The notes beneath the pieces were generated by a model. That model had not been told where the DNA came from. It saw only the letters and a list, made by a program, of their open reading frames with translations, and searched no databases. Made by a program: the position numbers and the translations under genes. Shown here in pieces: positions 38,628 to 59,662 of a DNA stretch of 64,000 nucleotides. Numbering within the stretch: the first letter of the stretch is position 1; each line of letters opens with the position of its first letter. Origin of the DNA: Candidatus Omnitrophota bacterium (GTDB lineage Bacteria > Omnitrophota > Gorgyraeia > Zapsychrales > JBAZNR01); the NCBI GenBank assembly GCA_041649175.1, contig JBAZNR010000001.1, positions 1,039,497-1,103,496 of the forward strand. The letters run 5' to 3'.

Positions 38628-38656
38628 AAAACCCTCTTCAATGAGGGTTTTTTATT
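38628..38656 (+). terminator. Rho-independent terminator downstream of the candidate sRNA
   Basis: 9-bp stem AAAACCCTC / GAGGGTTTT with a TTCAAT loop, followed by a T-run. Confidence 0.75.
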
Positions 38657-38731
38657 TTTATGCCATCCTTAAGCTAATCTTTCTTCTGCATTCTTTTTGT
38701 TGTGAAAAATCATTTTCTAGGCAATAGGTTA

Positions 38732-38740
38732 TGGTATAAT
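38732..38740 (+). promoter_or_regulatory. Extended -10 promoter (TGGTATAAT) for the Zn-ribbon/M20 operon
   Basis: TGnTATAAT at 38732-38740. The first in-frame ATG lies at 38749, only ~8 nt downstream. This suggests a leaderless or near-leaderless mRNA. Confidence 0.5.
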
Positions 38741-38748
38741 TGTGCCCA

Positions 38749-39051
38749 ATGAATATCAAATTTTTAAGGGTTTTTAAACGCGTTGATGTCGACGATGTCA
38801 AGGGGCATCTATTGATCTGCGGAGACCTTTCGGCCAGCTGTTCGAAATGCGCGGCTGTAGGGATAAAACTTGATAGCAGCAAGTGCCCTGAATGCCAAAC
38901 AGATTTTCGTTATGTTACTTTCCGAAATATAAAAGAAAATATGCCTAAAGTTCAAAGGTTAAGCGAACCTCCATTGGCTTTGTCGGTCATTGATTTTGAT
39001 GATTATAAGAAAATTACCGGAGCGCAAAAAGCTGAGGATTTCTTTAGATGA
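38749..39051 (+). CDS. Small Cys4 zinc-ribbon protein of unknown function
   Basis: ~100 aa with CSKC...CPEC. Its stop overlaps the start of the M20 peptidase gene (ATGA). The six-frame ORF begins at TTG 38740, inside the -10 element, so ATG 38749 is preferred. Confidence 0.55.
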   Translation: MNIKFLRVFKRVDVDDVKGHLLICGDLSASCSKCAAVGIKLDSSKCPECQTDFRYVTFRNIKENMPKVQRLSEPPLALSVIDFDDYKKITGAQKAEDFFR

Positions 39052-40190
39052 TCAATAAAAAAAGATTAACGGCATTAACTCAAAAGCTGATCGGGATCAA
39101 TTCTGAAAATCCTCCGGGACGAGAATGGGACATAGCCGAATTTATCCGTAAAGATATGCTGTCTTTAGGGCTGGATGTTAAGACATATACATTCCAAAAG
39201 AAGCGGCCGAATATTGTGGCGACTTTGCGGGGCAAATTGCCCCGCAAAGTCGCCAGCTCTCAAGCTATCTTGCTTTCGCCGCATATTGATACGGTTCCGG
39301 CGGGCAAGGGTTGGCGATTTGGTCCGTTTTCCGGGAAAATCCACCAAGGGAAAATTTATGGGCGTGGGGCTAGCGATGATAAGGGTAATTTAGCTTGTTG
39401 CATGGAAGTTTTAAGAAGCTTGATGGAAGACGGTGTTTCTTTCCAGAAAGATATTATCATGGCCGCAACGGCGGATGAGGAAACGGGGAGCCATTTTGGC
39501 ATTGTGCCGCTTTTGGCTAAAAAGATCCTGAAGCCAAAAGCGGCACTCATCATGGATTCCGACGAATTTCATTCTATTATCGCGCAAAAAGGGCTTATCC
39601 ACTGCCGGGTTCAGATTTTTGGGAAAAAAGCTCATGGCGCTTATAACTGGCGCGGTATTAATGCCATTGAACAAGCCGGCCGCATAATCAATCAAATAAA
39701 ACAACATAAGTTTTCTTTTAAAAAACATACGCTTTTGCACGCGCCGACGGTCAATGTTGGGACGATCAAAGGCGGAGACAAAGTCAATATGGTCGCGGAT
39801 TTCTGCGAATTTTCTTTAGATTTTCGTTATTTACCCGGCACAGATCCAAAATCTGTTTTAAATATTCTTAAGAAAACCATTCGATCCGAGGCAAAGAAAT
39901 TCAAGATCATCATCGACGATCTTCAATATCCTTATGAGATTGATACTGATCATTCCCTGGTTAAAACTTTTTCTGCTACCTGTAAGAAAATGGGATTTAA
40001 ATCGCAACTAACTGGCAGTGAAGGCGCAACAGTCATTTCGTTCTTTAAGCGTTTTGGTATTCCGGCTATTGCAACAGGTTTTGCGGCGGAAGGCACAGCG
40101 CATATCACGGATGAATATGCGGTGGTGAACGATCTGTATCATGGCTCGCAAGTCTTAGAACAGTTTTTAAAGGACTATGACCAAATATGA
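39048..40190 (+). CDS. M20-family metallopeptidase (ArgE/DapE-like deacylase)
   Basis: HIDTVPAG and GASDDKGNLA metal-binding motifs. Length is 380 aa. Confidence 0.8.
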   Translation: MINKKRLTALTQKLIGINSENPPGREWDIAEFIRKDMLSLGLDVKTYTFQKKRPNIVATLRGKLPRKVASSQAILLSPHIDTVPAGKGWRFGPFSGKIHQGKIYGRGASDDKGNLACCMEVLRSLMEDGVSFQKDIIMAATADEETGSHFGIVPLLAKKILKPKAALIMDSDEFHSIIAQKGLIHCRVQIFGKKAHGAYNWRGINAIEQAGRIINQIKQHKFSFKKHTLLHAPTVNVGTIKGGDKVNMVADFCEFSLDFRYLPGTDPKSVLNILKKTIRSEAKKFKIIIDDLQYPYEIDTDHSLVKTFSATCKKMGFKSQLTGSEGATVISFFKRFGIPAIATGFAAEGTAHITDEYAVVNDLYHGSQVLEQFLKDYDQI

Positions 40191-48017: not shown

Positions 48018-49703
48018 ATGCAAAAAAAATGGAATATCAAGCACCCTAATCCAAAACTTCAAGCCGATCTCAGCAATTCTCTTTCACTTCATCCCATTGT
48101 CGCTCAGCTTCTTTTAAATCGCGGCATCAGCACTTCGCAAGACGCCAAAGACTTCTTATCAATTAATTTGTCATCTTTGCACGATCCGCTTTTGTTCGCG
48201 GATATGGATAAAACATTAAAACGCATCCATAAAGCCAAGGAAAAGAAAGAACGGGTCCTTATTTTTGGTGATTATGATGTGGACGGGATCACTTCTTCGG
48301 TTATCCTGAAAAATATTCTGCAAAAAATAGGTCTAGATGTCATCAACTACATCCCGCATCGTATCAACGAAGGCTATGGTTTAAATCATGCGATCGTTGA
48401 TTTCGCGAAAAAAAGAGATGTTAGATTGATGATCGCCATTGACTGTGGCATTACGGCATTCAGCGAAGTCGATGCTTTAAATAATGCTGGTATCGATGTG
48501 ATCATCATGGATCATCATGAGCCGCCGGAGAAAAAACTTCCCAACGCGGTAGCCGTCATAAATCCAAAACGCCATGATTGTAAGTATCCTTTTAAGGGAT
48601 TGGCTTCCGTTGGTCTAGCGTTTAAGCTTGCTCAGGCATTATTGGGGAAGGCGTGCGAAGACTACCTTGATCTGGTGGCGCTAGGGACGGTGGCAGATGT
48701 GGCTGAACTTTTAGGAGAAAATAGGGTTTTTGTTAAGTTTGGATTAGAAAAATTGAGCCACACCAAAAATAAAGGTTTAATGGCTTTAATGGATGTGGCG
48801 CGCATCAAAGGGAAGAAATTAAAGCCGCATTCGATCGGATTTGTTTTGGGCCCGCGGATCAATGCCAGCGGCCGCATGGGGTCAGCAGAAAAATCTTTAC
48901 AGCTTTTGCTAAGCGAAGAAGAACATGAAGCGTATTCATTGGCTAAAAGCTTGGAAGAAGAAAATCAGAAACGCCAAAAAATGCAAGGCAATATCATTGA
49001 AGAAGCCTTAAGCGTTGTTGAACGAGAAATAAATTTTAAAGATCATCGCATTATTGTTTTGAGCAAAGAAGGCTGGCATCGGGGCATTGTGGGTATTGTC
49101 GCTTCGCGTATTATGGATACATTCTATCGGCCGACCATTGTTATTTCGCTGGAAGATGGGCTTGGAACCGGTTCGGCACGATCGATTGACGGCTTTCATA
49201 TGTATGAAGCTTTAAAACACTGTGAAGCTTTGTTAGAAAATTTTGGCGGACACGAACACGCGGCGGGGTTGACGATCAAAAAAGAGAACATTGAGAATTT
49301 CAACAATTTGATCAATCAATTTGCGAAAGATCATATGGATGTCCAGAGTTTAATTCCAACACTTGATATTGATTGCGAGATCTCATTATCCAGCTTGACC
49401 TTAGAGCTTGTCGAGGCGGTTAAATCTTTGGAGCCCTTTGGTGAAGGAAATCCCTCGCCGGTTTTCTGTTCAAGGCAGTTAACAGTCAAGACGCCGCCCG
49501 TCATCTTAGGGCGCGATACCATTAAATTCTGGGTGAGTGACGGGAAAGTTGTTCTTCAAGCGGTTGGATTTGGACTGGGAAGATTCTTTGACCTGGTTTC
49601 CGGAGGCACAAAATTAGATCTGGCGTACGCGGTTTCCACTGATGATTGGAATAAAGACCCTATTATACAATTGGAAATAAAAGATATTAAAGAGGCTGAT
49701 TAA
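48018..49703 (+). CDS. recJ: Single-stranded-DNA-specific exonuclease RecJ
   Basis: DHH motifs (IFGDYDVDGITS, DHHEP) and a DHHA1 domain. Length is 561 aa. Confidence 0.9.
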   Translation: MQKKWNIKHPNPKLQADLSNSLSLHPIVAQLLLNRGISTSQDAKDFLSINLSSLHDPLLFADMDKTLKRIHKAKEKKERVLIFGDYDVDGITSSVILKNILQKIGLDVINYIPHRINEGYGLNHAIVDFAKKRDVRLMIAIDCGITAFSEVDALNNAGIDVIIMDHHEPPEKKLPNAVAVINPKRHDCKYPFKGLASVGLAFKLAQALLGKACEDYLDLVALGTVADVAELLGENRVFVKFGLEKLSHTKNKGLMALMDVARIKGKKLKPHSIGFVLGPRINASGRMGSAEKSLQLLLSEEEHEAYSLAKSLEEENQKRQKMQGNIIEEALSVVEREINFKDHRIIVLSKEGWHRGIVGIVASRIMDTFYRPTIVISLEDGLGTGSARSIDGFHMYEALKHCEALLENFGGHEHAAGLTIKKENIENFNNLINQFAKDHMDVQSLIPTLDIDCEISLSSLTLELVEAVKSLEPFGEGNPSPVFCSRQLTVKTPPVILGRDTIKFWVSDGKVVLQAVGFGLGRFFDLVSGGTKLDLAYAVSTDDWNKDPIIQLEIKDIKEAD

Positions 49704-49945
49704 GACTTGAAACTTCGCTGGGCTTTAGTTATTTTTCCGGCTTTGATACAGCGGCTGCAGACCAAAGCGGTTTGAACGGTACCGTTAAGAATGATCTTAA
49801 CTTTTTGCAGATTAGGTAAATAGTGGCGCAGGGTCTTTCCGGTGATCTTTTGACCGGCGCCGCCTTTGGCTTTCGCCATACCGCGTCGGACGTATTTGTT
49901 TCCCCGTATAGAACCTTTGTTGCAGATTTTGCAGAATTTTGCCAT
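49700..49945 (-). CDS. rpmB: 50S ribosomal protein L28
   Basis: MAKFCKICNKG...RHYLPNLQKVK matches the L28 signature (LPNLQ). This is the only minus-strand gene in the window, and its 3' end converges on recJ. Confidence 0.85.
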   Translation of the reverse strand: MAKFCKICNKGSIRGNKYVRRGMAKAKGGAGQKITGKTLRHYLPNLQKVKIILNGTVQTALVCSRCIKAGKITKAQRSFKS

Positions 49946-50114
49946 AGTTTTTTCGTGTTTGTAGGTTTTAAAAAATATTTGAACGACGAACTGATGAAGT
50001 ATACTTGAAAATAGAATTTTGTCAATAATATTTTACGGGCGGCTTTCGCTCGGAATTTCTCCGGGGATCGTAAATCAGGCTCATAAAAAGTTCTGTGGTA
50101 TTCTTTAGAAGAGA

Positions 50115-50120
50115 TATAAT
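50115..50120 (+). promoter_or_regulatory. TATAAT -10 element 7 nt upstream of the helicase-nuclease ATG (candidate leaderless transcript)
   Basis: TATAAT at 50115-50120, ATG at 50128, and no room for a Shine-Dalgarno sequence. The -35 region (TTCTGT) is weak. Confidence 0.4.
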
Positions 50121-50127
50121 ACGTTAA

Positions 50128-53043
50128 ATGGCTAATCCCATCCTAAAAGATCTTAATCCTCAGCAAAAAAAATCCGTTATCCACGAGCAGGGGCCGCTTC
50201 TTATCATTGCGGGAGCCGGCACGGGGAAGACAACGGTCATTACGCATCGTATCGCGCATTTGATCGTTGATAAGAAGATCCGTCCCGACCAGATCTTGGC
50301 CCTTACGTTTACCGATAAGGCGGCATTTCAAATGCAGGAAAAAGTTGACATCTTAGTGCCGTATGGATTTACGGATACCTGGATCTATACGTTCCATGCC
50401 TTCGGAGACAAGATTTTACGCGAAAATGCTTTGGAATTAGGTATGAACCCTGATTTTAAAGTTTTGACCCGTCCCCAAACTGTTGTTTTTTTTAGGGAAA
50501 ATTTATTTAAATTTCCGCTGAGCTACTATCGCCCCCTAGGAACGCCGACGAAATTCATTGATGCGATGATCTCACTTTTTTCGCGCGCCCGCGACGAAGA
50601 CATTTCTCCTCAAGAATATCTCGGGTATGCCCAAAAACTTCTCATAAAAGCCCGAGAAGGCACGGACAATGCGCTTACTGAAGAGGCGATGCGGGAAATG
50701 GAATTGGCAAAATGCTACGAGCAATATCAAGAATTATTGTTAAAAGCCAACAAAATCGATTTTGCCAATCAATTCTATTTAACGCTTAATTTGTTTCGCC
50801 AGCGGCCCAGTGTTCTTCGGCGTTATCAAAACCAGTTTAAATATATTCTGATCGATGAATTTCAAGACACGAATTATGCGCAATTTGAGCTCGTGAAGCT
50901 TTTAGCGGGAAAAGATTGTAACTTAACGGCTGTGGCCGACGATGATCAGTCTATCTATAAATGGCGAGGAGCTGCCGTCAGTAATATTTTAAACTTTATG
51001 AAGGTGTATCCTAAAAGCGAGAAGATCGCCCTGACAAAGAATTATCGCTCGGTTCAGCCTATTTTAGATTGCGCTTATCGTATCATTCAAAATAATAATC
51101 CGGACCGTTTTGAAGTGCAGGCCAAGATCAATAAGCGCCTGATCGGGATTTCCAAGAAGGGAAAGCCGGCCAAGCATATGCATTTTGATACCTTATCTTC
51201 GGAAGCGGATTGGGTGGCGGAATGTATCGAAAAAAAAGTTAAATCCAAGAAAAATGATTACTGTGATTTTGCTATTTTGGTCCGCTCTAACTCTGACGCG
51301 GATGCGTTTTTACAAGCACTTAACATGCGCGGGATCCCTTGGCAGTTTAGCGGTAATCAAGGGCTTTATTCGTGCGACGAGATTCGCTTGTGTATTGCGT
51401 TTTTACGGCTGATGATCAACCCATCAGATTCTCTGAGTTTGTATTTCTTATCGACATCCGCTTGTTATCAGCTCCCGATCGTTGAACTGACCAGGGTAAT
51501 GAATCTAGCTCAACGCAAACAATGGGACCTTTTTTATATTTTACAAAAACCAGAAGCGCTAAACGGGGCCGGAGAGTTGTCCGGCGAGTTTTTATCAGCG
51601 AAAACAAAAATTATTAAGGATATTTCCAGCTTTTTAGAATTATCCAAGACACATTCGGCAGGGAAACTACTATATCTTTTTTTAACACAAACAGGGTTTA
51701 TCAAAGATCTTGCGCAAGATCAAAACGCGGACAATGAACAAAAAATAAAGAATCTGGCAAAGTTTTTTGACATCATTAAAGAATTTGAGTCCGTTTCCGG
51801 TGAGAACCGGGCGATCGCCTTTGTGAATTATTTGGACATGCTGATCAATGTTGGCGATGACCCACCGGTGGCGCAAGCTGACTTGGATGCGCGCGCGGTC
51901 AACATCCTGACGATCCATAAAGCCAAGGGTTTGGAATTTCCGGTTGTTTTTATGGTGTCTTTAGTGGAGCGCCGCTTTCCGTGGCCTTTACGCCGAGAGC
52001 CTATTGAAATTCCGGAAGACCTGATCAAAGACATTCTTCCTGTCGGTGATTTTCATATTCAAGAGGAGCGAAGACTTTTTTACGTCGGAATGACACGCGC
52101 CGAAAAGGAACTGTATTTGACCTCAGCCTCGGATTACGGAACAAAGCGTCCTAAAAATGTCAGCCGTTTTGTCTTGGAAGCGGTGGCGGACAAAAGGCTA
52201 GTTCAAGCTATAAAGAAAAGTGCTTTAGAAGCCATTGAACGCAATGCTCCCCGCGCTAAAGCGCAAGCATTGGCTTCGTCGTCGGTCATTGATGACGAAC
52301 AGATCCTTAATCTAAGTTATTTCCAGATCGATGATTATTTGACTTGTCCGCTAAAATATAAATATGTCCATATTTTACGCGTGCCGATCATGGCGCATCA
52401 TACAGTTCTTTACGGCAAAGCTCTTCACGACGCGGTGCAGTATTATCACCAAAATAAGATCAAAAATTTACCAATTTCGGAAGATGATGTTGTTAAGGTT
52501 TTCGAAGAATCATTTCGCCGTGAAGGGTTTTTGTCGAGAGAGCATATTGAGTTGCGTTTAAAATCCGGCACGCAGGCGATCAGGAATTTTTATCAGGATC
52601 AAGAAAGGTCAAAAGTCACTCCGGCTTATGTTGAAAAGGATTTCTCTTTTCTTCTGGGAAATAACCGGATGATCGGGCGCTGGGATAGAATTGATATTGT
52701 TGACGGGCAGGTCATTATTATTGATTTCAAATCTTCAGCGGTAGAAACGCAAGAAAATGCTGATCGCCAGGCAAAAGAGAGCTTGCAACTTTCCTTATAC
52801 AGCTTGGCGTATGAAAAAATATTCGATCAAATTCCTTCCTATAAAGAGCTTCATTTTCTTGAAACCGGATTAGTAGGGCGGGCGCAGGTTGCCGCGGTAA
52901 ATGCGGAAAAAGTTACCGAAATAGTTTTAAAGGCATCTTCCGGTATCCGTTCGGCGGATTTTGCGGCCAAGCCAACGCGCATGGCTTGTCTTTTCTGCGC
53001 GTATAATCAGATCTGTCCGTCTGCGGAAATCCATGAAAGATAA
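50128..53043 (+). CDS. UvrD/Rep-family SF1 helicase fused to a C-terminal PD-(D/E)xK nuclease with a Cas4/AddB-type Fe-S Cys cluster
   Basis: Walker A motif GAGTGKTTV and UvrD motifs (DEFQDTN, helicase C-terminal TIHKAKGLEF). The C-terminus has DYLTCPLKYKY ... CLFCAYNQICPS, a C...CxxC...C ligand set. Length is 971 aa. Confidence 0.8.
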   Translation: MANPILKDLNPQQKKSVIHEQGPLLIIAGAGTGKTTVITHRIAHLIVDKKIRPDQILALTFTDKAAFQMQEKVDILVPYGFTDTWIYTFHAFGDKILRENALELGMNPDFKVLTRPQTVVFFRENLFKFPLSYYRPLGTPTKFIDAMISLFSRARDEDISPQEYLGYAQKLLIKAREGTDNALTEEAMREMELAKCYEQYQELLLKANKIDFANQFYLTLNLFRQRPSVLRRYQNQFKYILIDEFQDTNYAQFELVKLLAGKDCNLTAVADDDQSIYKWRGAAVSNILNFMKVYPKSEKIALTKNYRSVQPILDCAYRIIQNNNPDRFEVQAKINKRLIGISKKGKPAKHMHFDTLSSEADWVAECIEKKVKSKKNDYCDFAILVRSNSDADAFLQALNMRGIPWQFSGNQGLYSCDEIRLCIAFLRLMINPSDSLSLYFLSTSACYQLPIVELTRVMNLAQRKQWDLFYILQKPEALNGAGELSGEFLSAKTKIIKDISSFLELSKTHSAGKLLYLFLTQTGFIKDLAQDQNADNEQKIKNLAKFFDIIKEFESVSGENRAIAFVNYLDMLINVGDDPPVAQADLDARAVNILTIHKAKGLEFPVVFMVSLVERRFPWPLRREPIEIPEDLIKDILPVGDFHIQEERRLFYVGMTRAEKELYLTSASDYGTKRPKNVSRFVLEAVADKRLVQAIKKSALEAIERNAPRAKAQALASSSVIDDEQILNLSYFQIDDYLTCPLKYKYVHILRVPIMAHHTVLYGKALHDAVQYYHQNKIKNLPISEDDVVKVFEESFRREGFLSREHIELRLKSGTQAIRNFYQDQERSKVTPAYVEKDFSFLLGNNRMIGRWDRIDIVDGQVIIIDFKSSAVETQENADRQAKESLQLSLYSLAYEKIFDQIPSYKELHFLETGLVGRAQVAAVNAEKVTEIVLKASSGIRSADFAAKPTRMACLFCAYNQICPSAEIHER

Positions 53044-53144: not shown

Positions 53145-53172
53145 TTGACAGAAAGTTGTCCATAGCTATAGA
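53145..53172 (+). promoter_or_regulatory. Consensus sigma70 promoter for the 73-aa protein gene
   Basis: TTGACA at 53145-53150, a 16-nt spacer, then TATAGA at 53167-53172. An AAAGGAG RBS precedes the ATG at 53203. Confidence 0.55.
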
Positions 53173-53202
53173 ATAAGGCAAATCCTGAAGAAAGGAGCAT
53201 CA

Positions 53203-53424
53203 ATGGCTAAGATCGATCTTAAAGAGTTATTGAAGGACAAGAGAGTTGTCGAAGAGATCAACCGACATCTCTGGATTGAAAGCGAAAAGGCCGGCTATGA
53301 TATTGGTTTTGAAAAGGCGGCTGAAGACTGGCTCAAGCGTTTTTCCGCAGAATGGGTCAAGTTTCACGCGACTAACGGGGCTGACGCAAAAAAGGCACGT
53401 AGCGCAAAATCGTATTTCAAATAA
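53203..53424 (+). CDS. Small hypothetical protein of 73 aa
   Basis: Strong RBS and its own promoter. The protein is charged and predicted helical (MAKIDLKELLKDKRVVEEINRHLWIESEKAGYDIGFEKAAEDWLKRFSAEWVKFHATNG...). Confidence 0.6.
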   Translation: MAKIDLKELLKDKRVVEEINRHLWIESEKAGYDIGFEKAAEDWLKRFSAEWVKFHATNGADAKKARSAKSYFK

Positions 53425-58312: not shown

Positions 58313-59662
58313 ATGAAAATACCTAAGAATATCGATAGCCTTATTTTTAATGACATTAACGTCGGTGTTTACCGCAATACGCCCGGCACGCATGGAAAAT
58401 TTATCCGCGTTAATGATGCGCTAGTTCGCATGTTCGGCTACAGCAATCAAAAGGAATTCTTAAAAAAGGTTCGCCCGTCCGATGTTTATTTTTATTCCGG
58501 CGATCGCAAGAAATTTAGCGAACTACTTGCCAAAAAAGGTTTTGTCCGAAGAAAAGAGCTTGTCTTAAAACGTCGAGACGGAACATTGGCGTATGTGCAA
58601 ATTACGGCAACAGCGGTGAAAGACAAAAGAGGGAAAGTCCGTTGGTTTGATGGGATCATTGAGGATGTAACGAAGTTTCGCCGGGAACAGGAGCGGTTTC
58701 GCCATATTTTTGAAAATTCACCCGTTGCCATCTGGGAAGAAGATTTATCGGCTGTTCTTCAGCTTATCAGGCGCTTGCAGAAACAGGGGACAAAAGACCT
58801 GCGAAAATATTTCTTGAGTCATCCTGCGATCGTTGCTCATGCTTTTCGGAATATTAAAATTTTAGATATCAATAAGGCTGCCTTGCAACTTTATGGAGCG
58901 AAGAATAAAAAAGAATTAGTTAAAAATTTTGGAAAAACATTTGCCGCCGGCGCTTTAGAGATATTAACGGATGAATTTCTTACCCTGGCCAAAGGTGAAA
59001 AGAATTTTTCCACAGAGTTAAAAAGTAGAACCATTGATGGCAAGATGCGCGATGTGCTTTTGCGCGTCTCAGTTCCTGATGGTTACGAAAGAAGCCTTTC
59101 CCGTGTTATTGTTACCTTGGAAGATATTACAGAACGTAAACAGCTTGAGCGGCATTTAAAAAAAGTTGCTCAGCAAGACGGTTTGACGAAATTATTCAAC
59201 AGTCGCGCCATATCCAAGCGGCTGGATGAAGAGCTTATTCGAGCCAAGCGCTATAATCTTAATCTTTCCTGCCTGATGCTGGATGTTGATTATTTTAAAG
59301 TGATCAATGATAAATTTGGACATCAAAAAGGCGATCAGATCTTAAAGCGTGTTGCGACCTTGATCAAAACGAGCTTGCGCCGCTCGGATATTGTCGGCCG
59401 TTATGGAGGCGATGAGTTTCTGGCGATCTTGACCCAAACGAAACCTGAAAATGCCAAGATCGCCGCCGAGCGTATCCGCCAATTGGTTACCGCGCAAAGG
59501 TTTCCTTCATATAAAAATATTCCAACCAAGATTACGGTCAGCATCGGTGTCAGCGGTTATCCTCATAAGGATGTTAAGGATTTTCGGAATTTGATCTCAA
59601 ATGCTGATAAAGCGCTTTATCTTGCAAAAGGTTCCGGCCGAGATTGCGTTATTTTGTCATAA
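58313..59662 (+). CDS. PAS-PAS-GGDEF diguanylate cyclase with an intact GGDEF active site and RxxD I-site
   Basis: C-terminal motif ...RRSDIVGRYGGDEFLAIL... The N-terminal ~270 aa are PAS-like repeats. Confidence 0.85.
   Translation: MKIPKNIDSLIFNDINVGVYRNTPGTHGKFIRVNDALVRMFGYSNQKEFLKKVRPSDVYFYSGDRKKFSELLAKKGFVRRKELVLKRRDGTLAYVQITATAVKDKRGKVRWFDGIIEDVTKFRREQERFRHIFENSPVAIWEEDLSAVLQLIRRLQKQGTKDLRKYFLSHPAIVAHAFRNIKILDINKAALQLYGAKNKKELVKNFGKTFAAGALEILTDEFLTLAKGEKNFSTELKSRTIDGKMRDVLLRVSVPDGYERSLSRVIVTLEDITERKQLERHLKKVAQQDGLTKLFNSRAISKRLDEELIRAKRYNLNLSCLMLDVDYFKVINDKFGHQKGDQILKRVATLIKTSLRRSDIVGRYGGDEFLAILTQTKPENAKIAAERIRQLVTAQRFPSYKNIPTKITVSIGVSGYPHKDVKDFRNLISNADKALYLAKGSGRDCVILS

Follow-up and report, generated by a model that had tools for sequence, protein, structure and literature searches.

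The stretch of DNA analysed here, referred to as the window, comprises 64,000 nucleotides of a Candidatus Omnitrophota genome (contig JBAZNR010000001.1, positions 1,039,497 to 1,103,496). At window positions 50128..53043, on the plus strand, it carries an open reading frame (ORF) of 971 amino acids, opened by an ATG and closed by a TAA within this range, that joins an N-terminal UvrD-type helicase motor to a C-terminal PD-(D/E)xK nuclease with four cysteines predicted to bind an iron-sulfur (Fe-S) cluster. An initial annotation, made from the sequence alone, had read the gene as a single-polypeptide UvrD-type helicase with an Fe-S nuclease, a reading with which the Pfam matches, the motifs, the alignment of the cysteines with those of AdnA and the lack of a second subunit all agree. 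A 100% identical protein, P0001, is deposited as a "UvrD-helicase domain-containing protein" from a Candidatus Omnitrophota metagenome-assembled genome, and homologues that are 56-76% identical over ~970 amino acids fall into at least 120 clusters.

The start of the protein is well defined. An in-frame TAA at 50125-50127 directly abuts the ATG at 50128, and the first later in-frame ATG, GTG or TTG is codon 45, which lies past the Walker A motif; the ATG at 50128 is thus the sole usable start codon. Orthologues start 19-40 codons ahead of Walker A, with 25-28 codons as the commonest distance.

The Helicase Motor

Residues 9-668 (50152..52131, plus strand) form a motor of the superfamily 1A (SF1A) UvrD/PcrA type. 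Pfam assigns residues 9-294 to UvrD-helicase (PF00580, 2.4e-76) and residues 300-668 to UvrD_C (PF13361, 5.7e-56), consistent with the proposal that the N-terminal ~650 amino acids carry the SF1 UvrD/PcrA motifs. These motifs, all on the plus strand, are Walker A, or motif I (AGAGTGKT, 50209-50232), motif Ia (50305-50325), motif II (DEFQD, 50854-50868), motif III (DDDQSIYKWRGA, 50938-50973), motif IV (51043-51051), motif V (51910-51939) and motif VI (52063-52101). Across 31 aligned homologues (56-76% identity), motifs I-VI vary little or not at all at their core positions, the conserved stretches being AGAGTGKT, TFTDKAA, DEFQDT, DDDQ..Y..RGA, YRS, T.HKAKGLEF and EERRLFYV..TRA. Judged by its sequence, the motor appears active, with all ATPase and helicase motifs intact, and the Walker A, DEFQD and arginine-finger motifs reside in the same chain as the four cysteines.

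Among known helicases, the motor is nearest to PcrA, both in sequence (1pjr, E = 3.5e-101) and in a Foldseek comparison of structures (3.9e-39, 32% identity). UvrD, Mycobacterium tuberculosis (Mtb) UvrD1 and Rep follow, and AddA, AdnB and RecB rank behind.

Four Omnitrophota orthologues of ~1335 amino acids (P0029, P0033, P0035 and P0072) contain an intein of ~360 amino acids (PF14890/Hint). In P0029, the only one of these to be aligned, the insertion lies within motif III (VADDDQ/C…intein…/SIYKWRGA), and the insertion point maps to 50949/50950 of the window, between Q274 and S275.

The Linker and the Four-Cysteine Nuclease

The motor is followed by a linker, residues 669-728 (52132..52311, plus strand), that is mostly of low confidence or disordered in the full-length AlphaFold2 model, in which the predicted local distance difference test (pLDDT) score is <50 for residues 668-676 and 690-717. 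Beyond it, residues 729-964 (52312..53019, plus strand) form a PD-(D/E)xK nuclease of the Fe-S, or "iron-staple", type, matched by PDDEXK_1 (PF12705, 1.8e-30). The profile-based domain annotation therefore recovers all three expected domains, UvrD-helicase, UvrD_C and PDDEXK_1. More specialised models stay below their cut-offs. Cas_Cas4 (PF01930) reaches 20.9 bits, just under its cut-off of 22.7, and the Cas4 model TIGR00372 reaches 34 bits against 65; the AddA equivalog TIGR02785 (202 bits against 708) and the AddB equivalog TIGR02786 (25 against 487) also fall below, and the RecB equivalogs are likewise far short of their NCBIfam cut-offs.

The candidate Fe-S ligands are C740 (52345-52347), C954 (52987-52989), C957 (52996-52998) and C963 (53014-53016), all encoded on the plus strand. 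They form the pattern C…CX2CX5C, embedded in DDYLTC740PLKY and MAC954LFC957AYNQIC963PS, and are invariant in 43 homologues, which upholds the earlier assignment of the C-terminal ~250 amino acids to a RecB-family nuclease with a C...CxxC...C arrangement. The catalytic site, of the pattern E…D…DxK…QxxxY, is also intact. It is composed of E836, D853 (52684-52686), D866 (52723-52725), K868 (52729-52731) and Q887/Y891 (52786-52800), again on the plus strand, and all six residues are invariant among the Omnitrophota-type homologues (31 aligned; 43 sequences). In 19 more diverse nuclease domains (33-54% identity), the first three cysteines and the D…(D/E)xK…Q…Y residues are invariant or nearly so, D866 being nearly invariant and D853, K868, Q887 and Y891 fully so.

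Structural comparison places the domain among nucleases with the same cluster topology. The AlphaFold2 model of the domain alone is of high quality (pLDDT 93.3, predicted template modelling score (pTM) 0.88), and in a Foldseek search of the Protein Data Bank (PDB) its best match is the Fe-S nuclease of AdnA (E = 2.9e-10, TMq 0.75), followed by ACE1 of the Cas4 family (4.4e-10), AddB (4cej_B, 3.7e-7) and Dna2 (9.7e-7). RecE, AddA, RecB/RecC, Cas4, EXO5 and MGME1 rank behind, with Cas4 SSO0001 at 1.8e-5. A search of the PDB with the single nuclease-domain sequence yields only a marginal match to AdnB (E = 0.28). A more sensitive comparison, using a profile built from the 19 diverse domains, matches the core of the AdnB nuclease at 7.7e-14, the whole AdnA nuclease domain at 3.8e-8 and Cas4 SSO0001 at 1.8e-4. 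In the alignment of the profile with AdnA, CPLkY falls on CPLRW and aCelCaykkiCP on gCanCpvrssCP, so that all four cysteines pair with the cluster cysteines of AdnA. The Fe-S cluster of AdnA, the subunit with the inactive motor, is visible by cryo-electron microscopy (PMC13000450). Taken together, the nuclease is of the AddB/AdnA/Cas4 type with four cysteines, and is predicted to bind an Fe-S cluster.

A Known but Biochemically Unstudied Family

Proteins of this architecture have been described before. Hudaiberdiev et al. (2017) identified a UvrD-Cas4-like fusion as the largest branch of PF12705, found in many bacteria and in mesophilic archaea (PMC5704561). The helicase domains of these fusions make up a separate, monophyletic clade, and the genomes that encode them contain several UvrD paralogues; the genes are located beside type III restriction-modification (R-M) genes or Dcm/Vsr, or stand alone in variable contexts (PMC5704561). 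The novelty that the initial annotation implied for the gene does not hold, since the fusion had been described as a monophyletic and widespread group. Our searches likewise indicate a very large family: relatives of the nuclease domain number 3,887 representatives (clusters at 50% identity) at E ≤ 0.001, and the nearest relatives in a set of 1.84 billion representatives are without exception fusions of ~950-1000 amino acids or fragments of such fusions. The architecture is thus known, widespread and biochemically unstudied, and the gene in the window is an ordinary additional member.

The assignment to the UvrD-Cas4-like family is made by domain architecture and cysteine pattern. Like the described fusions, the protein carries in one chain a UvrD-like SF1 helicase at its N-terminus and a Cas4-like PF12705 nuclease with four cysteines at its C-terminus, and like them it belongs to a group that often stands alone in non-conserved contexts and is experimentally uncharacterised. 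It differs in its neighbourhood, as the published contexts are type III R-M and Dcm/Vsr, whereas here the gene lies among housekeeping genes and is syntenic with recJ.

Of the characterised systems, mycobacterial AdnAB (PDB 6ppr, 7sjr and 9np6) is comparable in the arrangement of its domains, as both of its subunits consist of a UvrD-like motor and a RecB-like nuclease. The nuclease described here is structurally closest to that of AdnA, with the four cysteines aligned; its catalytic core matches the AdnB nuclease as given above, and its motor matches AdnB at 8.8e-47. AdnAB is, in contrast, a heterodimer encoded by two adjacent genes, with the Fe-S nuclease on the motor-dead AdnA, whereas here an apparently active motor and an Fe-S nuclease share one chain and there is no partner gene. 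The motor, moreover, resembles PcrA/UvrD, with 32% identity, more than it does AdnB, with ~20%. Bacillus AddAB resembles the protein in the C…CX2CX5C pattern that flanks a RecB-family nuclease and in the fold match to AddB, but it is composed of two subunits, and the helicase-like domain of AddB is inactive and reads Chi. In both AddAB and AdnAB the Fe-S nuclease resides on the other, motor-dead subunit (PMC13000450), in agreement with the earlier remark that AddAB splits the pattern over two subunits.

PcrA, UvrD and Rep share the motor, at 27-32% identity and with all motifs kept, and provide its best sequence and fold matches; they have no nuclease, and here a linker and a nuclease replace their C-terminal region. 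Cas4, ACE1, Dna2 and EXO5 share the nuclease fold and the topology of the four-cysteine cluster. Cas4, ACE1 and EXO5 differ in being stand-alone nucleases, and Dna2 in that its helicase is of the SF1B (5'→3') class and lies C-terminal to the nuclease. Among the annotated neighbours of the gene described here, none is a cas gene.

Genomic Neighbourhood

The divergent neighbour of the gene, as had been noted initially, is rpmB (ribosomal protein L28, Ribosomal_L28; 49700..49945, minus strand). Next to it lies recJ (DHH, DHHA1 and RecJ_OB domains; 48018..49703, plus strand), the stop codons of the convergent recJ (end 49703) and rpmB (end 49700) overlapping by 4 nucleotides (nt). Upstream are found argS, recJ and rpmB, and downstream a 73-amino-acid ORF followed by genes for iPGM, uracil-DNA glycosylase (UDG) and a polysaccharide deacetylase. 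With IF-2, Pol I and PNPase encoded elsewhere in the window, the surroundings are those of the core chromosome.

The small ORF directly downstream (53203-53424, plus strand) weakly resembles DUF4032 (E = 3.4e-4, short of the cut-off) and is preceded by a strong σ70-like site of its own at 53145-53174 (TTGACA-N18-TAGAAT). Small ORFs of 64-84 amino acids occur at the same position in four related loci (L083, L084, L085 and L093), the likeness being one of position and size.

Related loci were collected to a total of 89, of which 2 come from genomes, 80 from metagenomes and the remainder from exact-protein look-ups. The vicinity of the gene in the window encodes no partner subunit, and among the clustered neighbours of the 89 loci no partner is found in more than ~10 of them. 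Nor is there an adjacent addA/addB pair: the flanks are rpmB and the 73-amino-acid ORF, and no large partner recurs across the loci. The pair of recJ and L28 genes recurs on its flanks in 10 Omnitrophota-type loci. In 10 other, distant loci (L005, L016, L019, L020, L023, L026, L027, L040, L043 and L050), a gene of the RmuC family (PF02646, 2.2e-55; putatively recombination-associated) is found within a few genes, at variable positions.

The Upstream Region and the Question of a Leaderless Transcript

The sequence upstream of the gene reads …AGAGATATAATACGTTAA and is followed by the ATG at 50128. It includes, at 50115..50120 on the plus strand, a perfect -10 hexamer, TATAAT, located 7 nt (ACGTTAA) 5' of the ATG, exactly where the initial annotation had placed it; as a candidate promoter, it would yield a leader of 0-1 nt. 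A Shine-Dalgarno (SD) sequence is lacking, as had also been noted, with GGAG, GAGG and AGGA not found at -17..-4. TATAAT occurs 24 times in the 128 kb made up by both strands of the window, and just two of these sites sit 5-9 nt before an ATG that opens an ORF. Per gene, the probability that chance puts such a site at this distance upstream of the start is ~1e-3. The TATAAT is not, as had been claimed, the only recognisable -10: a promoter scan lists, on the plus strand, a σ70-like site at 50005..50034 that begins with TTGAAA (50005-50010) and continues as either N16-AATATT or N18-TATTTT, with 9/12 matches, which would give a leader of ~90 nt. The rpmB promoter lies back-to-back with this region (TTGACA-N16-TATACT, 49998..50025, minus strand, 11/12 matches).

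Positions 50035..50114 (plus strand) make up most of a lineage-specific stretch of ~95 nt that L083, the closest relative, lacks; the stretch is unstructured and matches nothing in Rfam. An origin as a mobile or repetitive element was considered and rejected, since no second copy is present in the window or in the related loci. Similarly, a structured or riboswitch leader was rejected for 49940-50200: this interval has no Rfam match at E ≤ 1, and the putative leader folds less than shuffled sequences do (z = +1.5).

The geometry seen at this locus recurs among orthologues. In a survey of 81 non-redundant loci, in which hexamers were counted if they matched TATAAT at ≥5/6 positions with A2 and T6 fixed, -10-like hexamers are concentrated 6-9 nt before the start codon, in 8, 6, 3 and 4 loci, respectively, or 21/81 (~26%), compared with ~0.6 such hexamers per position elsewhere. 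The same geometry is present in 20/191 operon-head-like ORFs of the same loci (~10%; odds ratio (OR) 3.0, p = 0.0026) and in 25/303 of the other ORFs (OR 3.9, p = 6e-5), so that the rate in this gene is 2.5-3-fold above that of neighbouring genes. The extended -10 element TGn precedes 8/21 of the hexamers (binomial p = 2e-5), an enrichment more in keeping with genuine promoters than with AU-rich signals for translation. The loci concerned (L005, L016, L020, L022, L023, L025, L032-L034, L047, L048, L050, L053, L057, L060, L061, L068, L081, L083 and L087) are spread over 10/35 clusters at 60% identity and range in GC content from 0.29 to 0.72, with hexamers of the TATAAT, TAAAAT, TACAAT or TATAGT type 6-9 nt before the ATG. 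They include L083 itself, 76% identical to the protein in the window, which has AATAAT-N6-ATG despite lacking the 95-nt stretch. By -10 geometry, a leaderless design is thus a candidate feature that recurs in the UvrD-Cas4-like gene family.

The second TATAAT of this kind in the window belongs to another gene. At 38732-38751, TGgTATAAT-N8-ATG opens an ORF of 100 amino acids (38749-39051) that has no Pfam match and extends into the beginning of an M20 peptidase gene (39048-40190). Upstream of it lies a cyclic di-GMP-I (c-di-GMP-I) riboswitch (RF01051; 38422-38573, plus strand; 59.4 bits against a gathering threshold of 35), followed at 38630-38659 by a terminator-like hairpin with a T-run (AACCCTC…GAGGGTTTTTTATTTTT). 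The 38749 gene therefore carries a riboswitch leader as well as a leaderless-type extended -10, and the window also encodes a GGDEF diguanylate cyclase (58313-59662). As independent proof of leaderless mRNAs in this genome, the 38749 site is weakened by the riboswitch and hairpin upstream of it, and it indicates that leaderless-type geometry can coexist with a long leader.

Several observations weigh against a leaderless transcript at 50128, beginning with that second site, whose TATAAT lies downstream of a riboswitch leader. The TATAAT at 50115 lacks TGn; its best -35 has 2/6 matches, a score too low for the promoter scan to list the site; and the probability of finding one such site by chance over the ~57-60 genes of the window is ~5%. 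The 9/12 site ~90 nt upstream, which overlaps the divergent rpmB promoter, offers another start, and the ~95-nt stretch that carries the TATAAT is lineage-specific relative to L083 and unique in the window. The SD core is found at -17..-4 of only 16/57 gene starts (28%, against 2/57 in a control region), which makes SD-independent initiation the norm in this Omnitrophota genome; with 41/57 genes (72%) lacking an SD, its absence carries no weight for leaderlessness. Among 11 relatives of ≥65% identity, the geometry is clear only in L083 and weak in L087, where the gene is preceded by a small ORF with its own TGcTATAAT promoter. L084, L085, L092 and L093 start 20-32 nt behind a co-directional gene, L089 has a TTG start with AAGG, L094 has TGtTAAGAT ~45 nt upstream, and L001 has a TTGAAA-N17-TAAAAT promoter, with a leader of ~32 nt, at a position that matches the 50005 site of the window. 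In L002 and L088, no -10-like hexamer was found at leaderless spacing. A literature search found no pairing of Omnitrophota and leaderless in titles or abstracts.

These observations can be accommodated by a leadered mRNA that starts near 50040 from TTGAAA-N16/18-AATATT/TATTTT and carries an AU-rich, unstructured leader of ~90 nt with SD-independent initiation, the TATAAT at 50115 being a chance or minor site. This explanation, which we hold to be a serious contender at a little under even odds, is favoured by the 9/12 upstream site, its homologous counterpart in L001, the many SD-less genes, the weak folding of the leader, the leadered or operonic appearance of seven relatives (L084, L085, L092, L093, L094, L089 and L001), and the TATAAT that has neither -35 nor TGn. 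It leaves to coincidence a perfect consensus hexamer at exactly leaderless spacing, rare per gene as computed above, a geometry that recurs in about a quarter of orthologues with enrichment of TGn, and the -10-like hexamer that L083 retains 6 nt before its ATG. A transcript that starts at or 1 nt before the AUG, driven by the TATAAT at 50115-50120, is accordingly plausible, though not to the point of being favoured. Of the leaderless expression proposed in the initial annotation, the geometry stands and proves to recur in the family; the step from it and the missing SD to a leaderless mRNA is less secure than had been put forward, as genes without an SD are normal here, an alternative upstream promoter is present, and the close relatives are mostly leadered or operonic.

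Proposed Mechanism and Alternatives

Our preferred reading, to which we assign a probability of roughly 0.6, is that the product of the gene is a UvrD-Cas4-like helicase-nuclease that stands alone as a single chain, with the following mechanism and expression. The motor would move 3'→5' on single-stranded DNA at the expense of ATP and unwind duplex DNA from ends, nicks or stalled forks, and the nuclease, tethered by its flexible linker of ~60 amino acids, would cut the single strands made by the motor. The Fe-S cluster would stabilise the nuclease and, by analogy with AdnA and AddB, may also contribute to strand separation at the fork junction. In this sense one could describe the protein as the motor of AdnB combined with the nuclease of AdnA on a single polypeptide, one that acts in recombinational repair or fork processing, probably alongside the 5'→3' exonuclease RecJ encoded next to it. 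A RecB/AddB-like role was also predicted for the fusion by its describers (PMC5704561). In Omnitrophota the gene would have a conserved housekeeping rather than a defensive function and be expressed from its own promoter region, back-to-back with that of rpmB. A leaderless start and a ~90-nt leader with SD-independent initiation would be about equally likely, and both may occur.

Some points count against this reading. Most fusion-bearing genomes encode RecB too (PMC5704561), and the synteny with recJ is limited to one lineage. Our literature search found no biochemical study of any single-chain UvrD helicase with an Fe-S nuclease; polarity, the strand preference of the nuclease, oligomeric state and cluster binding are all properties that we infer. 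The full-length AlphaFold2 model, with a pTM of 0.42, is unreliable in its inter-domain arrangement, too much so to show which strand the nuclease receives or whether the protein acts as a monomer.

A different identity for the protein would be that of the organism's own PcrA/UvrD orthologue, serving in nucleotide excision repair and mismatch repair and, as an accessory helicase, in replication, with the nuclease in place of the C-terminal tail and with UvrD-like strand displacement rather than end resection as its main activity. In sequence and in structure the motor does match PcrA and UvrD best, conservation is high across the phylum, and the chromosomal context is a housekeeping one. We nonetheless regard it as unlikely, since the top NCBIfam model, PcrA (TIGR01073), scores 478 bits, below its cut-off of 911, with uvrD (354 against 1144) and rep (398 against 951) also below theirs, and since the 2017 tree groups the fusion helicases together as a separate monophyletic clade, the genomes concerned having several UvrD paralogues (PMC5704561). 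Far less probable still is a role in defence, in which the protein would assist a defence system as its accessory helicase-nuclease. Such a role has been proposed for UvrD-Cas4 genes beside type III R-M or Dcm/Vsr, the commonest conserved neighbourhoods of the fusion in the 2017 survey (PMC5704561). Among the neighbours of the 89 loci, no cluster of R-M genes (Mod/Res), Dcm or Vsr recurs; PADLOC returns only generic GajB/UvrD-helicase models and no further defence signature; the window context is one of recJ, rpmB, iPGM, UDG and other core genes; and 56-76% identity across a phylum is unusual for defence genes. For the Omnitrophota lineage, the defence reading was rejected on the PADLOC result and the absence of R-M, Dcm and Vsr neighbours. 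A setting of housekeeping genes, with recJ or rmuC close by, makes recombinational repair or fork processing a likelier role than defence.

Significance

Nothing in the window contradicts ordinary housekeeping DNA-repair biology, and the importance of the gene is accordingly modest. What lends it interest is that one chain unites two activities that AddAB and AdnAB divide between subunits, and that the family is very large. A tractable member could show how an Fe-S nuclease and an active SF1A motor cooperate without a partner subunit, and the recurrent leaderless-type promoters are concrete candidates for leaderless expression in uncultivated phyla. More speculatively, and in our view improbably, the one-chain enzyme may be the housekeeping machine for double-strand-break and fork processing in Omnitrophota and in several further lineages without cultivated members. 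It would then amount to a pared-down AdnAB made of a single polypeptide, working with RecJ (or RmuC), and its recurrent leaderless extended -10 would have been selected for a low constitutive or stress-resistant, SD-independent supply.

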